Below are positions 3,172-43,068 of a stretch of 55,526 nt of DNA, piece by piece. Under the pieces are notes generated by a model. The model did not search any database. It had not been told where the DNA came from and saw nothing but the letters and a program-made list of their open reading frames with translations. How positions within the stretch are numbered: the stretch's first letter is position 1; every line of letters begins with the position of its first letter. This DNA is from Podarcis pityusensis (lineage: Eukaryota): the NCBI GenBank assembly GCA_964106645.2, contig CAXKZF020000196.1; one strand, written 5' to 3'. Both the position numbers and the translations under genes were made by a program.

Positions 3172-3200
3172 CCCCTCACCTACCGACGGTAGGTGAGGGG
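3172..3200. terminator. Inverted repeat, probable terminator
   Basis: CCCCTCACCTACCG-A-CGGTAGGTGAGGGG downstream of the lipoprotein genes. Confidence 0.55.
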
Positions 3201-5305: not shown

Positions 5306-5339
5306 AAAGAAAGTTCCGACTCGAGTCGGAACTTTCTTT
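5306..5339. repeat. Perfect 34-bp palindrome (possible bidirectional terminator)
   Basis: AAAGAAAGTTCCGACTC|GAGTCGGAACTTTCTTT. Confidence 0.75.
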
Positions 5340-9395: not shown

Positions 9396-10396
9396 AACCT
9401 GAGCTCGGAATTTCCAGGTCAAGCGAGGAAGTATCTCCTAGGATAGGAATAGCTAAGACCCACCAAGGAGATACGGTTATGAGTCTACTCGAGTTGTTTG
9501 TCGACGTCGATGATTTCTGCCAAAGGTTCGAGTTCTGGGCTAGCAGCCAGCAGCTGCCCGAGCCGTCCAGGCGTGGCCCTAAGCCGAGACTGTCAGCCAG
9601 CGAGGTCATGACCATCGTTATCCATTTCCATCAACAGGGCTACCGGGACTTCAAGAGCTTTTACCAAAAGCACGTCTGTAAGCATCTCCTCGCTGAATTT
9701 CCCGATCTGGTTTCATACGGACGCTTCATTGAGCTGATGCCTCGGGTGATGCTGGTGTTGTGTGCCTACTTGCAGAGCCGCTTTGGCTCCTGCACGGGCA
9801 TCGCCTTTGTCGACAGCACGCCGCTAACGGTGTGTCACAACAAGCGTATTGAACGCCACCGGGTCTTCAAGGACTTGGCAGCACGTGGTAAAAGCACAAT
9901 GGGTTGGTTTTACGGTTTTAAGTTACACCTGATTGTCAACGAGCTGGGCGAACTGCTAGCTGTTCACCTCACCCCAGGTAATATCGATGATCGTAAGCCT
10001 TTGGCTGCCATGAGCAAAGACCTGTTTGGCAAGCTCTTGGGTGGCAAAGGCTACCTCTCCCAGTCGCTGGTTGAAACCTTATTAGAGCGCGGCTTAGAGC
10101 TCATTACGACTGTGCGTAAGAATACGTGTGCCCCAACGTAGTGGGTATGAAGGGTCAGCTGATGCTACTATCCGACAGGCTTCTGCTGCGTAAGCGCTTT
10201 ATTATCGAGACTATTGCTGATCAGCTCAAAAACGTCTCGCAAATCGAGCACACCCGCCACCGCAGCCCCTTCAATTTTGCCATCAATCTCCTGGCGGGTC
10301 TCGTCGCTTACACGCATCAGCCCAAGAAACCTTCGCTCCGTTTATCTCCCGATTTGACCCAGCTACCTGCTCTTATCTGAACCCCGAACTCAGGTT
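9396..10396 (+). mobile_element. IS982 family element; transposase 9479-10380 disrupted by a 23-bp insert
   Basis: TIRs AACCTGAGCTCGG and CCGAACTCAGGTT. Motifs FVDSTPL, GWFYGFKLHL, KRFIIET and HTRHRS. Confidence 0.9.
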
Positions 10397-14200: not shown

Positions 14201-15470
14201 CTACCATCCCATGGGTTCGGGCGTCACGGCGCAGGCAGCGTCGGCCGCCTCTTGCGCAGAAGCCTGACCGTTCCAGAGTCCTTCGAGTCCCACATCGACG
14301 CCGTCGCCTATAAACGCGTCCCAGTTCCTGATCATGGTGGGAAGTCGCCCGTAATCGAGCACGTCTAAGCTCAGCTCGAGATTGAGGAGGTTCATTGGAG
14401 AGATATTCTCGGGGGGATCTCGTAAGATCGCTTCTATGACATCGGGTCGGGGAGGTATGCCTTTACCGTATGTAACAGCGCCCAAGGTGTATATCTCGGG
14501 TGAGGCCATAAATTTGAGGTATTCCCAGGCCGATTCAGCGTTTTCCGTGTTTGCCGACATGACGTAGTCCGCCAGATGCAAGAAGGTTGCAGGTTCTCCA
14601 TCCGCACGAGTAGGCAGAGGCGCCATACTCCAATTAAAATCTGCCTCTTGCTCAAAAGCAGGGATATCCCAACCGCCACTTTGATACATTGCCACACGCC
14701 CTGTTACGAAAAGGTCCCAACCTGTCATGCCGAGTCCGGTCATCTGTTCAGGACTCGGTGAGTATCCTTGCTGGTTAAGACCAGACCACCATTCGAGCGC
14801 TTCTACTGCCTGTGGCTCTCCTAGGATGCACGTGGTTCCATCCTCGCTGATCAGGTCGCCGCCACTCTGCCAGACATAGGGCAACCAGACCGCCCACCAA
14901 CTGTCCGCAAAGACGCCGTATGTTTTGTTCGGACCTTCGCCCTGAGTCAGCTCTTGTGCAGCGCGCTCGAAATCTTCCCACGTCCAGTCAGCAGTCGGAT
15001 ACTCAACGCCGGCCTCATCGAACATGTCTTTTGTTGTAATACAGGCGCTGCACGTCAACAGGTGCGGGCAACATGTAGACGTGTCCGTCGGGACCGCGAA
15101 AGTAGTCGATTACCGACGCTTGAAAGTCGCTCTCTTTAAGGTCTGTGTCCGACTCGAAAAACGGGGTGAGGTCGTGTGCCACGCCGTCCTCGATAAAACG
15201 TCCGACAAATACGTCACCCGAGCCGAAGATGTCAGGCGGTGTGCCAGCGGCGATCTGTGCCAACACTTGAAGGTCGTACCCTTCCGGAGGTACGGGTTGT
15301 TCCTGAATCACGATCTCGGGATGCTCAGCTGTGAACATTTCGTTGACGGTAGCCATATACTCGATTTCGGAGTTCTCTCCAGGATAGGCAACGATCAGGG
15401 GTGCCTGCGCGTACGCAAGCGGCAATGTAATAAGGGTCATTAACGTGGTTAGTTGAAGGGGCAGGGTCAT
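14201..15470 (-). CDS. Sugar ABC transporter substrate-binding protein (frameshift near 15050)
   Basis: Own RBS (AAAGGA) and signal MTLPLQ...AYA-Q; [33 protein letters not shown]. Confidence 0.85.
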
Positions 15471-15532
15471 AAAGTTCCTTTCCGGGTTCTTGAGATATTT
15501 TGGCTTGCGGTCCGGGTAAAGCGCCTCCTTTA

Positions 15533-16583
15533 TCAAGAATCTGAAAAAGTCAAGAACAACCTGCAGGGTGCTGTTTGGGTCAGTGTCGAGCAGCTCAAAG
15601 GCTTTTGCCGCATCATGAAAGGGAGTACGGTGGCTGATGAGTGGCTCTAGATTAAGGACGCCCTGCGCTTGTAGCGCAATCACAGTCTGAACCATCCTCA
15701 GTTCGTTCCAACGATAGGAAAGTTCAGGATCGACACCCGATATCTGTGAACACACGATGTTGATGCGATTATGGTGAAACTCTTCCCCGAGGGTGAGCTG
15801 AGTAGCTGCGCCTTGATAAAACCCAAGGGCAACGACCTTGGATGAGTACGCAACCGAACGTATAGCTTCATTAAGCGCAGGCGACGCGCCAGATGCTTCA
15901 AAGGCAACATCAGCCCCTCGGTTGTCCGTGAGCCCACGTATACGTTCCGCGACCGAGCCCTCACTGGCCAAAAGTGTGATGTCTAAAGATCCAAGACGCT
16001 TCGCCAGCTCGAGGCGTTTGGAAACGAGGTCAATACCGATCACGCGCGCACCCGAGCGTTTGGCAAGCTGAGCGATAATTTGACCTGGCACGCCCAGGCC
16101 GAAAACGGCTACGGTCTCGCCGATACGGACGCGTCCATCATGGACGCCATTGAGTGCAATTGCCCCAATCTGTGAAAAGATGCCGAGAATCGGATCAAGG
16201 CCAGGAGGTAAGATCCTTGGCTTTGCATACGCTTCGCTAACGACATGATGTGTGCGGTGCCCCCACGCACCGCACACATGCTCCCCTACACCTATACTCT
16301 CGACGCTTTCATGGACTTCAACAACTTCACCGACTTCTTCGTACCCCCACCCGCTAACTGGGTAGGTGAATTGAGGTGTCTCACTCTCAACAAAAAGCCG
16401 TCGAGTCTCGTCCCAGCGCTTGTGCAGGTAGGGGTTGGTGCCACGGTACGCGGTCAGTTCAGTACCTGCGCTGATCCCCGAATAAAGTGTTTTAATCCTT
16501 AATTCTCCGCTCTTTAGCGGCCTTTCGGCGTATTCGCGTATCGACACCTCATGAGACCTGGTGAAGTCGACAACCTGAGCCAC
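15533..16583 (-). CDS. Zinc-binding (MDR) alcohol/sugar dehydrogenase
   Basis: YSGISAGTE, GYEEVGEV, VFGLGVPG and GADVAFEASG motifs; GGGGAGG RBS. Confidence 0.85.
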
Positions 16584-29546: not shown

Positions 29547-30623
29547 TTAGAAAGCGTAGCGTACCCGGCAGTAGGGCATTCTTTGGGCAATGAGGGCGTT
29601 GAGCAAGGCCACCTGTTGCCCTTTGAAGCCGCGTCGATAGCGCACGTTCTCCCCACCCATCTGCGAAGTTTTGGCCTCCTGGGTTTCCGGGGTCCAGAGC
29701 AGCGCCTCGGCCTTCGGATGCCAACCTAAGTTGACCTCGTGCAGCGACGCATTGTGCGTCAGGAAGATGACTTCGGCCTTTAGTTGTGCTTTCGCCTCAA
29801 TAGATAGAACGTCGTCTATCTCTGTCAAAAGCTGGGCATAATCTTCCTTCCAGCCGTCATAGATAATGACTGGGCTGAAGTTGAGGTGCACCTCGTAGCC
29901 AGCGCCGACAAAATCGTTGACAGCCGCAATTCGTTGCGATACCGGCGTTGTCCTCACATCGACAGTCTTAGCAACTTTCTGAGGCATAAGCGAAAAGCGG
30001 ATGCGTGTTTTACCCTCAGGTTTGTAACTCAGTAATCCGCGGTTGACGTACTTCGTGGCAAATGAAGCTTTTGCGTTTGGGAGGTCACGAAAAAAGGCGA
30101 CTGTGTCTTTGACGTTGTCCGAGATCAACGCATCAACCGAAACATCGCTGTTCTCGCCGATGTCATAGACCCAGTAGGACGGGTCGGTTTGGGAAGGTGT
30201 TTTCGGTCCCTGCTTGGCAACATGTCGCTCGACAGCTTTGAGAATGGGCTCGAGATTGACAAATGTCGAGATAGGGTTGGCAAAGCCTTTGCGCCGAGGC
30301 ACGTAGCAGTAGGCGCAAGCCATGGCGCAGCCGCTGGCGAAGCCCGGTGCGATGAAGTCCGCACTACGCCCGTTCGGGCGGACGGGGAAACCTTTACGAA
30401 CCCCCAGTACCAGCACTGACTTCTTAAGCCGGACCCAGTCCTTCACCAGTCCTGCATTGCCATGTAAACCAGGGATGTTCCAGTGTGATGGGACTTCGGT
30501 GAGTTCGGCGTCAGGATAGCGAGCCAAGATCTCTATGCCACGAGGATAGCGCCGCACCTCAGGCTCGAGGAAGATGTGCGAGACCTCGAAGAGGGCGGAA
30601 ATAGTACGAGCGTTACTACTCAC
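29547..30623 (-). CDS. Spore photoproduct lyase-like radical SAM protein (divergent type)
   Basis: CxxxCxxC in SADFIAPGFASGCAMACAYCYV; SFATKYVN, TRIRFSLMP and GYEVHLNFSP; GTGA overlap with the upstream paralog. Confidence 0.85.
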   Translation of the reverse strand: MSSNARTISALFEVSHIFLEPEVRRYPRGIEILARYPDAELTEVPSHWNIPGLHGNAGLVKDWVRLKKSVLVLGVRKGFPVRPNGRSADFIAPGFASGCAMACAYCYVPRRKGFANPISTFVNLEPILKAVERHVAKQGPKTPSQTDPSYWVYDIGENSDVSVDALISDNVKDTVAFFRDLPNAKASFATKYVNRGLLSYKPEGKTRIRFSLMPQKVAKTVDVRTTPVSQRIAAVNDFVGAGYEVHLNFSPVIIYDGWKEDYAQLLTEIDDVLSIEAKAQLKAEVIFLTHNASLHEVNLGWHPKAEALLWTPETQEAKTSQMGGENVRYRRGFKGQQVALLNALIAQRMPYCRVRYAF

Positions 30624-33021: not shown

Positions 33022-33181
33022 CGTTCTAGCATAAGGAGTGCAAAGGAGGGCCACTAGCCATATTAATTACAGTCTTGCTGACCAAGAACTCTGTTAGCGT
33101 GCCTTGTGCCTACCGTGTATAGCCTTAAGGCAATAATAAAGACGTGGCTGCAACCACGTCTTTAAGGGGTAAGATTTAAAG

Positions 33182-34813: not shown

Positions 34814-34841
34814 AAAAAGCTCATAACGTTATGAGCTTTTT
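34814..34841 (+). terminator. Rho-independent terminator
   Basis: AAAAAGCTCATAAC|GTTATGAGCTTTTT. Confidence 0.75.
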
Positions 34842-35134
34842 CAGTTAGAAAAATTGAAATATCAGAGCTGAATGCTAATAGCAGCTTCAAACATAAATCT
34901 CGGCGTGCTCGCAACAGAAGCTAGGTGGATCTTCTCGATGCGGTGTGCTCTCCTAATGTTCGCGTCGCCTAGCACTAGACCTGCTGTTTAACCAGTCTTA
35001 TGCTTTTAGACTCATCACTTCTTTTGAAGTCCTCTTAAGCTACGACCTTCAGCGAATATTCATTCCTTTACCCGATATAAGTGGGGGTTGACTGAAGCCC
35101 TGTTTCCTGAAGCCAAGATTCTTGCATATTCCTA

Positions 35135-36020: not shown

Positions 36021-36392
36021 TAAACGTAAACTTGCTAGGCTTTGCCATGCTCGGCCTCTTCATCATGGTGCCCTCCACTGTTACAAGCAAGGTTATACCC
36101 GATAGTAAGAATGCGGTAACAGCCGCAATGGAAGAGATCGAACTAGGTACAGGCGTTATCTGGGGCAAGGACGTGTTTACTGCCCAGAAGATCAAGCTTG
36201 CTGTTGCCTCTGATGAAAAGGCATCACGCGAAATGAATGATACCTACACGATTACACAGGTCAACACACCGACCAAATCCGAGCTGGCCACAATGGAGCG
36301 CCCCAAGCTCACGAACCACGGCGCGTTTTGACAGGGTAAGACTCTTTTGTATCCAGCTTTAGGCATGTTTGCATAAATCCTCTTCTAAACAC

Positions 36393-40312: not shown

Positions 40313-40649
40313 TAGGACATGGGCTATTCGGTAGATTTACGCGAACGAATCGTTGAAGCTGTGCAGGAACGCAACTTCAGCATTCACGAAGCAGCTGCTA
40401 CGTTCCGGGTTGGCCACGCGACGGTCGCACGGTACCTGCGTCGGTATCGAGAACGGGGCGAGCTAACAGCAGACAAGCCACCAGGCCGCCCGAGCCGGGT
40501 AGCGGGTGAGCAGCTCGGTGCGCTCAAGAAACAGCTTAAGGCATATAACGAGCTGACCCTGATGGAGCACTGCGAGCTGTGGGAACGGGATACGGGCATG
40601 AAGCTGAGCTATGTGACGATGCACCGGCTAAGCAACCGTTTGGGCATCA

Positions 40650-41932
40650 TGATACTGCCCCGCTAAAACGGAGACCGAGTTAAGCCTCTAGTGCCAAAAT
40701 GGAGGCAATATGAAAGAACGCAGGGTCTACACCGCAGAGTTCAAGCGTGAAGCGGTACGGCTGAGTGAACAAGCCGACGTCAGCGTGGCTCAGGTCGCCC
40801 AGGAACTGGGCGTGTCTGACTACAGCCTCTACAAGTGGGGCAAACAAGCGAAGGCTGGGGGCGAGTTGGCATTCCCTGGGGAACGGCAAGGTCGCTCTAA
40901 CGGCGGAGCCCTAAAGGATTTCCTACGGTCACAGCAGGAGAACGTGCGGTTGAAAAAAGAACTCGAGCGGGTGACGCAAGAGCGTGATGTTTTAAAAAAA
41001 GCGGTCAAGTTCTTTGCGGGGGAAAGCAAGTGAGGTACGCCTTCATCGAAGCGCACCGAAGCACCTGGTCCGTCGGTCTGATGACTGGCGTGTTAGCGGT
41101 GTCGGTCAGCGGCTTTTACGCTTGGTTACGGCGGGGGCGAAGTAAGCGAGCCGTAGAAGACGAGAGGCTCACCGAGAAGATCGTGATGTTTCACTGCAGG
41201 AGCCGCTTTACCTACGGTTCGCCGCGCATCCATAAGGACCTGAAAGCTGCCGGGCACAACGTTGGGCGCAAGCGCGTGGCTCGTCTGATGCGGAATGCGG
41301 GTCTTCAAGGTAAAACGAAGCGTCGGTTCAAGACCACCACGAACTCTCAACACTCGCGCCCTAAAGTGGAAAATCTGGTCGCGCAAAGCTTCGACGTGGC
41401 AATCCCCGACACCCTCTGGGCGAGTGACATCACCTATGTCCCCACGCACGAGGGCTGGTTGTATCTGGCTGTGACGCTCGACCTTTTCAGCGAACTAGGC
41501 CCAACGGGCCGGGCTTTGCCCGTCAGACTAACAGATGATCTGACGCTTGCAGCCTTAGCGATGGCGACGCAGCAGCGACCCGATTTGGCGGCGCTTACGC
41601 AGCATTCGGATCAAGGCAGCCAATATGCTAGTCAGGCGTTTAGGGCCGAGCTGAAGGCCAATCACATCACCCAAAGTATGTCGGGTAGAGGAAACTGCCA
41701 CGACAACGCGGTTGTCGAGTCGTTCTTCGCCACCCTCAAAACCGAGGAAGTCGAGGGCGCTCCCTACGAAACCCGCCAGCAGGCTAAAACCAGCATCTTC
41801 GGCTAGCTCGAGGGTTTCTAAAGCGCCAAGCGCAGACACTCTTCCCTGGGGTTTCTATCTCCCGACGATTTTGAGAGGGTACACTTCGCTCAAGCTGCTT
41901 AACTGCGACTCCGTGAAAACGGGGCAATATCA
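40650..41932 (+). mobile_element. IS3 family element (orfA 40710-41033, orfB 41030-about 41900, degraded)
   Basis: TG...CA TIRs TGATACTGCCCCG and CGGGGCAATATCA, with TCA target duplication; YTAEFKREAV, WASDITYV, HSDQGSQY and DNAVVESFF. Confidence 0.93.
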
Positions 41933-42739
41933 TCAGCCGCAAAAAAGACCCTCTCAGCCAGTGAGCAAGATCCGCTAGCTCGCCTCCTATGGCTCGCTGA
42001 AGTTCTCAAGTCTGACCCTAAACGTTTGGTGAGCGGCTTCAACTTGGCGAGGATGCAATGCCCACCAGGGTACGCCGCTTTATGCTCGCTCTCCTAAAGG
42101 CCAGCGCACCCACGGACAAGTGCCCAAGAACCGTGGCGAGAATAGCAGTCTGGTCGCAGCGTTATCCCTCGATGCAGGCGTCTGTGCAGCAATGACTGTA
42201 GAAGGTGCCGTCGACAGCATTGCCTTCAACATCTACATACAACCCGTGCTTGTACCTACCTTGCGTGCTGGACAGATCGTGGTACTCGATAATCTGCAAG
42301 TGCACAAAAACCAAGCTGTACGACAGGCTATTGAAGCGCAAGGCTGTGAACTCCTGTTCTTACCGCCTTACAGTTCTGCCTCATTGTGCCCTTTGGGTAT
42401 CAACCCTATCGAGCACGCTTTCTCGAAACTCAAAGCGTTGGTTCGTAAGTGCAATGCCCGCACGAAACAAGCTCTCAATGACGCCCTCGCCGCTGCACTC
42501 GAGACTGTTACCTTGTAAGATGTCATCGGCTGGTTCAGCTATGCTGGTTATCTACCTCATGGTTTCTGAAAATTGCTGTAGGGTTTCGTTTATCCAAAAG
42601 CATCGAGCCGTTTAGGTGCTTTCAATCCGCTCGAGCTTGTCTGGCGTTTAACTTGGAGGCTTGGACAAGATCAAGGAATTTTCTTATTTGAAGCCAAGAT
42701 TCTCGCATGATCTTGAGCCCATGCCTGCTAGGCTTTGCC

Positions 42740-42943
42740 ATGCTCGGCCTCTGCATCATGCTTTTAGCGTTTTACCTGGCAGCCGGGCTTCTAGCACGCA
42801 AGAAACCTACGAACTTAGAGAGGCATGTAGGCATGGTCGGTTTCATTTGCCTGACGCCTGGCATGATCTCCGGGCGGCTGCCGCTGTTGATCTTGCCTAT
42901 TCTCGTCTTGATGATCGCAGGCTACCTGCACCGGGCACGGTAG
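42740..42943 (+). CDS. Small hydrophobic membrane protein (leaderless)
   Basis: TGC-TAGGCT-5 nt-ATG; MLGLCIMLLAFYLAAGLL...; the promoter block is repeated at 35107-36067. Confidence 0.55.
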   Translation: MLGLCIMLLAFYLAAGLLARKKPTNLERHVGMVGFICLTPGMISGRLPLLILPILVLMIAGYLHRAR

Positions 42944-43068
42944 GGACAAGAAAATAGGTGATGGTGAAAATAACAGCAGCGCCATCCACCTTCACGTTAT
43001 CTCAGAATGTTGTATGTAGGTTTTTGCAGGGTTTGATCGGAGCCTGATCGGGGTCGTTGCAGAAAACT

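Follow-up and report, generated by a model that had tools for sequence, protein, structure and literature searches.

A probably mobile family of 18- to 30-nt hairpins inserted in transposase genes and repeats of Trueperaceae-like bacteria

We identified small hairpin-shaped inserts in a bacterial contig and, with high confidence, regard them as members of a real mobile family, which is probably among the smallest mobile DNA elements described so far. The best explanation, to which we assign a probability of roughly 55%, is a family of gene-less hairpins moving by a single-stranded DNA (ssDNA) strand-transfer route. Since the small dispersed repeats (SDRs) of Nostoc were described, the movement of elements of ~20 nt has been an open question. 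For the family presented here, the donors are defined, as are six targets for which empty alleles exist, and one codon was reached independently.

The stretch of DNA analyzed here (the window, 55,526 nt) is the entire contig C216 of a 1.5-Gb eukaryote assembly (G000) from the lizard Podarcis pityusensis. It is gene-dense, 54% GC and bacterial. Its RpoD had named matches to Truepera or Trueperaceae at 70–74% and matched a JGI protein at 99%. To judge from its sequence, the window's organism is a Trueperaceae-like bacterium, and the hairpin insert is a feature of this co-sequenced bacterium and not of the eukaryote. Seven other bacterial contigs were found in the assembly (C50, C86, C116, C150, C157, C169 and C322). 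Bacterial contigs in a eukaryote assembly may represent contamination or a co-sequenced bacterium, and C157, at 68% GC, may come from a different organism.

The window contains three inserts defined by comparison with empty alleles. They are given here with their hosts, a nearby substitution and one motif match outside the family:
9396..10396, + strand: host IS982-type element with terminal inverted repeats (PF13612)
10044, + strand: Asp-to-Gly substitution, GDKGY to GGKGY
10125..10147, + strand: micro-element copy 1, 23 nt (empty sister copy; near-identical copies elsewhere)
29562..29578, − strand: chance motif match, not family, within the final codons of an intact spore photoproduct lyase gene
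41931..42582, + strand: 3′ part of the IS630 host, further decayed by a 12-nt deletion and a stop
42054..42072, + strand: micro-element copy 2, 19 nt (L116 lacks the 19 nt)
42382..42399, + strand: micro-element copy 3, 18 nt (L123 and L117 lack the 18 nt)

The IS982 transposase frame is split in two (9479–10141 and 10126–10380), with the break between RKN and MKG. The initial annotation had attributed this break to a 23-nt insert and proposed an alignment to intact copies, and that alignment bore it out. An intact sister IS982 on C86 (83% identical) is exactly 23 nt shorter at the insert point, and near-identical copies in two public runs also lack the 23 nt (X1, with 5 other letters differing in 239; X3, with 6 in 161). 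The empty allele fits three registers (10123–10145, 10124–10146 and 10125–10147); family members with unambiguous ends led us to place copy 1 at 10125–10147. It consists of the leader CGTG, the stem TGCCC/GGGTA and a loop with an inner AC-GTA-GT mini-hairpin. It lies between the Asn and Met codons, and the result is a frameshift of the transposase. Translational bypassing at copy 1 was considered and rejected, as take-off and landing codons that match each other are missing.

Two contigs contain the left flank together with the complete insert, up to 4 nt past the right junction: one of 545 nt in run X20 (0 differences) and one of 149 nt in run X2 (3 differences). X2 is an independent run from another study, X20 is possibly the source sample, and all public runs were compared as assembled contigs. 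At 10044, every covering contig of X1, X2 and X3 reads A; the change there is therefore likely later than the insertion, and copy 1 seems to precede the Asp-to-Gly change. The altered residue is likely the second catalytic Asp of the IS982 transposase. IS982 relatives in a collection of genome contigs reached at best 68% amino-acid identity, and none was useful. One IS982 contig was 3 nt shorter at 10138, a hint given by alignment length without letters.

Two inserts in an IS630 element, which the annotation had placed at 42051 and 42375, are also real and have TGCCC/GGGTA in common, but start at 42054 and 42382. The 5′ part of this element (40319–40666) is severed by an IS3-type element (40710–41930). 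Copy 2 (leader TGCAA, TGAAA in relatives; stem TGCCC/GGGTA; loop ACCA) follows the GFNLAM codons of the transposase and causes a frameshift. Copy 3 (leader CATTG; same stem; loop TTT) is in frame, within the PYSPD-x-NPIE motif. A 606-nt contig of X20 matched the IS630 region with zero differences, and no IS630 sister copy was found in the window's own assembly. Diverged IS630 contigs in X20 and X3 appeared gap-free across the second site, again a hint from alignment lengths without letters.

The bare motif TGCCC-loop-GGGTA occurred four times in the window compared to 1.01 ± 1.02 expected (1 of 100 shuffles reached four), and the motif alone is weak evidence. A scan against controls, which the annotation had suggested, showed a count barely above chance in the window, an excess in five Trueperaceae genomes (below) and none in 335 kb of G000 bacterial contigs (12 matches; 256 similar patterns averaged 14.7). 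The annotation had also expected the motif at indel sites, and all three indel-defined inserts do hold TGCCC and end in GGGTA (chance ~1e-5 per random insert). The count over the whole of G000 (11,416, control 24,487) was discarded as meaningless because the assembly is eukaryotic. Matches in intact genes (window 29562, C169 and L207) were set aside as chance, four matches in viral contigs were all outside a family context, and Rfam returned 0 matches across four loci.

We observed that the hairpin family is enriched in five of 128 Trueperaceae genomes. Counts of GTGCCC-N3-10-GGGTA against the control were 42 to 6 in G022, 35 to 9 in G023, 26 to 7 in G024, 24 to 6 in G124 and 52 to 15 in G090, and near control in most other genomes. 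With a tighter pattern and a reversed-pattern control, run on 363 Deinococcales genomes, the same five gave 35 to 1, 20 to 1, 9 to 1, 7 to 0 and 22 to 0, respectively. G022, G023 and G024 belong to one genus. G090 is unpublished and is the basis only of its counts, an insertion in an IS200 end and a DUF4277 host. The window's own loop variant was found as a true member in 0 of the 128 Trueperaceae genomes. Three other genomes with raised counts were not accepted: G225, where the count reflects 12 identical copies of one repeated sequence, and G304 and G312, with varied loops (six loci inspected in each, with a single G312 match passing the leader filter). Raised counts were also seen in the Deinococcales genomes G138, G306, G273 and G104.

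These results bear on the possibility that the inserts are an assembly artefact or a chance likeness among unrelated small insertions. Such a reading would fit the single occurrence of the exact copy 1 23-mer in G000, the lack of motif enrichment in the bacterial contigs, and the false positives in intact genes. The insert is nevertheless present in the independent run X2, other metagenomes contain variants at this junction, and related genomes are enriched in members of the family. This reading is already refuted, and its remaining probability is close to nil.

Empty and filled sites are known for six different targets. The main hot spot in G022–G024 lies within a 76-bp repeat with inverted ends, in one of its arms; the site pattern matched 203, 145 and 357 times in G022, G023 and G024, respectively, with most of the matches listed being empty. 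Among the filled sites listed, 50 of 51 carried the family (the pattern required a GGGTR end), and more than 30 different fillings, tandem and nested ones included, were counted by eye. Many of these may represent copying and mutation after a single insertion. The same repeat end is filled by the hairpin family on C50 and C322 of the window's assembly. The 76-bp repeat itself has hundreds of copies with a variable middle in G022, G023 and G024 (e.g. L168, L194, L203 and L218), and C50 and C322 hold a diverged relative of it.

Two other targets are GACT^TCG, in another repeat of G022, with empty alleles and a filling by the TTT core of copy 3, and CCAGCT^YGACTGG, with empty alleles and one target T lost at the 5′ junction. 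Host genes include IS630 and Mutator/IS256-type transposases and, in G090, DUF4277. The hairpins are sense in some host genes, as in the window, and antisense in others, and the family is equally frequent in non-coding repeats. No target structure was common to the six empty sites, whose predicted folds place the cut in stems or loops. A guide rule linking leader to target held only in part, since one core occurs at several targets, and was not adopted.

A second micro-element family of ~24 nt was seen nested in the hairpin stem (L210:7346-7400; G022:C2:505139, C2:2173205 and C4:404901) and also within IS630 genes of G023. At L187:9192-9926 (G022), a hairpin lies in a 245-codon open frame of no known family and leaves the frame unbroken.

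We scanned metagenomes for the motif at the Asn-Met junction and obtained at least 117 stretches. Two of 117 among the matches listed (L360 and L368) are IS982 with a variant insert at a junction identical to the window's; the other 115 among the matches listed had no IS982 match. The variant has the leader CCTG and an inner loop GAA. Compared to the window IS982, dS was 1.04–1.08 and dN/dS 0.06–0.09; the L360/L368 lineage thus diverged from the window copy as working genes, under purifying selection. The window IS982 is nearer to the empty L002 (dS 0.71). The left flank of L360 and L368 is CA, not TA, and there is no target duplication; TA on both sides of copy 1 is thus coincidental. An IS630-like TA duplication, hinted at by the sister copy, was rejected on this ground and was seen nowhere else. 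A variant at the identical junction without flanking TA indicates that insertion is recurrent, site-specific and free of target duplication. These alignments show that hairpins reached one IS982 junction independently.

L360/L368 and the window differ at bases only 2 nt from the insert on its left side and 5 nt from it on its right, which leaves little room for homologous conversion. This bears on a scenario without a dedicated enzyme, in which rare founders spread by gene conversion among repeats and insertion sequences and by host transposition. Many copies do have identical flanks because the host insertion sequence or repeat was copied, one loop subfamily is found at a single site in both IS982 lineages, and GACT^TC is filled repeatedly by the TTT core. 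We consider this scenario improbable. For conversion between the two IS982 lineages, crossovers would have to fall within 1 and 4 nt of the insert; unrelated targets contain identical cores; and six unrelated targets would still require founder events with an exact 3′ end.

In L360 and L368, the hairpin is preceded at a distance of 5 nt by an A-run ending in AAC, arranged as in a −1 frameshift signal, and GDKGY is kept. Low-level read-through might, speculatively, keep these copies active.

Family members are 18–30 nt long (18–23 nt in the window) and longer when nested. The constant stem has five pairs, one of them a G-T wobble, and covaries by a double change from TGCCC/GGGTA to TACCC/GGGTG. 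The 3′ junction is exact: GGGTR, then a pyrimidine. Leaders of 3–6 nt (CCTG, CGTG, AAG, AGG, CTATAG and CATTG among others) are not nested truncations of one sequence. Empty sites define the ends of 13 leader types; by eye, nine of these were C..G, one T..A and one C..A, and two started with A. Loops range from 3 to more than 12 nt. A terminal cGN(N)Ag loop is present in nine of 32 distinct cores (G090 left out) and missing from the other 23 (naive binomial 1e-4, post hoc and on related sequences), and all four GNA triloops are present. GCGNAGC and GCGNNAGC are described as unusually stable DNA mini-hairpins that are less stable as RNA (PMC13037366), and CCTG and CGTG as tetraloops of DNA closed by a C-G pair (PMC9975016).

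The structural signature of the family points to folded ssDNA. In the strand-transfer route that we prefer, the donor would be a folded single-stranded DNA hairpin, and a candidate enzyme acting in trans would join it into a nick in the target. The intermediate may be a dumbbell, either nicked or closed, that opens after GGGTR. On the complementary strand, the G-T wobble of the stem would be an A-C mismatch, which suggests that the top strand is the folded one. The frequent cGN(N)Ag mini-hairpin loops are consistent with a DNA intermediate, and a dumbbell is conceivable because most leaders, being C..G, would add one stem pair once the two ends of the hairpin are brought together.

Several observations stand against this route. 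No enzyme, circle or intermediate was found in the sequence data analyzed. Predicted ViennaRNA energies of the window inserts as circles were positive (+1.1 to +1.6 kcal/mol), and the predicted circle of copy 1 loses the stem. Predicted DNA folding energies were nearly equal for the top and bottom strands, and the target T lost at the CCAGC site is not normally expected of strand transfer. Hairpin orientation showed no replichore bias (17/43, p = 0.22), in small numbers and with many copies moved with their hosts; by dnaA position, 15/22 ran one way in G023 and 3/8 in G024, again without consistent bias.

The main rival is templated synthesis at a nick, in which a host polymerase would copy a small DNA or RNA hairpin onto the cut target end and repair would seal the other junction. 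Such a process would resemble target-primed reverse transcription. It would account for the invariant 3′ junction with varying 5′ leaders, the target base lost at CCAGC and the lack of replichore bias. The G-T wobble and some GNRA loops would suit RNA, and predicted RNA folding energies favour the top strand by 1–3 kcal/mol in most members. The leaders, not being nested truncations, argue against it, as do hairpins lying sense or antisense in host genes and the occurrence of all four GNA triloops. Reverse transcriptase (PF00078) was also not found in G022 or G024, nor was it listed for G090, genomes that may be incomplete or hold a remote homologue; it was present in G023 and G124 and in 27 of the 128 Trueperaceae genomes overall. 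On balance, templated synthesis is possible but unlikely. One reverse transcriptase of G023 (G023:C1:291528-292328, with three more copies) has ~58 extra residues before YADD; this segment is coding and holds no micro-element.

We also searched for transposases that could serve the preferred strand-transfer route. Y1 transposase (PF01797) gave 0 matches in G022 and G023 and was not listed for G124, with the same caveat of possibly incomplete genomes or a remote homologue; G024 had one weak match in a 1322-aa frame. The PF01797 control was positive in 6 of 14, and Y1 was found in 28 of the 128 Trueperaceae genomes. Y1/RAYT and reverse transcriptase are thus both missing from the richest genome, G022. 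The enzyme would be of a kind other than the Y1/RAYT transposases and reverse transcriptases that Pfam recognizes. A search for Y2 (IS91-type) transposase matched 0 of the five genomes, and its control also matched nowhere. One hairpin beside an IS200 tnpA in G090 (1 of 30 Y1 loci) was rejected as a lead, since it looks inserted into the element's end and not native to it.

An RNA-guided recombinase of the IS110 family was weighed as another source of the insertions. IS110 genes occur in G022, G023, G024 and G124, and the G024 element occupies the arm of the 76-bp repeat that the hairpins also use, at a position corresponding to theirs. Set against this, IS110 is found in 47 of the 128 Trueperaceae genomes, most of them without the hairpin family, and none was listed for G090. 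The G022 element has other targets, the ends of neither element resemble the hairpin, and the targets have no core dinucleotide in common with it. We therefore consider this source highly improbable.

SDRs of Nostocaceae are the closest comparison, as the annotation had proposed in suggesting a mobile family of ~20-nt hairpins; six targets, enrichment in related genomes and independent arrival all agree with that suggestion. The work of Elhai et al. (2008, Genome Res 18:1484) on these SDRs reportedly described a conserved fold, nesting and residence in minitransposons. Like SDRs (~20–27 nt), the hairpins are dispersed and short (18–23 nt in the window), have empty and filled alleles, insert precisely at recurring targets, show compensatory stem changes and occur as tandem and nested copies; the mobilizing enzyme is not known for either. 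The hairpins differ in their Trueperaceae-like host (phylum Deinococcota), in having their own stem, leader and variable DNA mini-hairpin loops, and in recurring inside transposase genes. SDR5 inserts between bases 3 and 4 of HIP1 (PMC4390886), and SDRs are reported only from Nostocaceae among surveyed cyanobacteria (PMC5861425); further papers cite the SDR work (PMC3116915 and PMC2884548). The hairpins are a distinct SDR-like family outside cyanobacteria, set apart by host range. In a literature consulted mostly as titles and the beginnings of abstracts, no report of such elements from Truepera or Deinococcota was found.

IS200/IS605 elements, like the hairpins, make no target duplication. 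The ends of IS200/IS605 and REP/REPIN-RAYT sequences (PMC6006769, PMC3116915 and PMC3733652) also resemble the family in being short imperfect hairpins with a few bases at the 5′ foot and strand asymmetry. Unlike in both systems, the Y1 gene is missing from G022 and G023. No consistent lagging-strand bias was seen in the small numbers of copies counted, many of them moved with their hosts. Compared to REP/REPIN sequences, the hairpin foot lacks a GTAG- or CGTC-type tetranucleotide, and the hairpins are often intragenic and occur as single units, not doublets.

Bacterial MITEs (PMC3184786) are likewise non-coding and non-autonomous with empty and filled sites, but the hairpins are three to ten times shorter and have asymmetric ends. 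The annotation had judged the insert too small for a MITE, and we agree: the hairpins have no terminal inverted repeats of their own and no target-site duplication (L360/L368, GACT^TCG and GGGTG-ending fillings). They insert into MITE-like repeats and are not themselves MITEs.

The transposase frame is usually broken by the insert, and the family would therefore act as a parasite of insertion sequences. The annotation had raised this as a route of transposase inactivation. In its favour, the 23- and 19-nt inserts cause frameshifts, and the IS982 insert seems to be older than the Asp-to-Gly change; a preference over neutral DNA did not emerge, as non-coding repeats are filled just as often. An enzyme able to insert a 20-nt hairpin without scars at favoured sites would represent new recombination chemistry, and would inactivate insertion sequences in a way that annotation pipelines register only as frameshifts. 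A bolder reading, which we put forward only tentatively, is an 18- to 25-nt ssDNA dumbbell transposon whose two ends would form a second loop. An enzyme of an undescribed class would open it after GGGTR and exchange it into selected sites, so that it would serve as a hyperparasite of insertion sequences or as a brake kept by the host, with identical conserved codons of IS982, IS630 and IS256-type transposases hit repeatedly.

The window also holds features outside the hairpin family. A dispersed repeat of ~280 bp lies at 42689–42968, 36024–36067 and 34975–35128, with two copies on C150 (87–89%) and probably one on C169. Near-perfect palindromes of 28–34 nt at 3172–3200, 5306–5339, 33137–33164 and 34814–34841 are probably terminators. 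A single open reading frame at 15015–16583 (− strand) combines a zinc dehydrogenase domain with part of a solute-binding protein domain, perhaps as a frameshift fusion or an assembly error.
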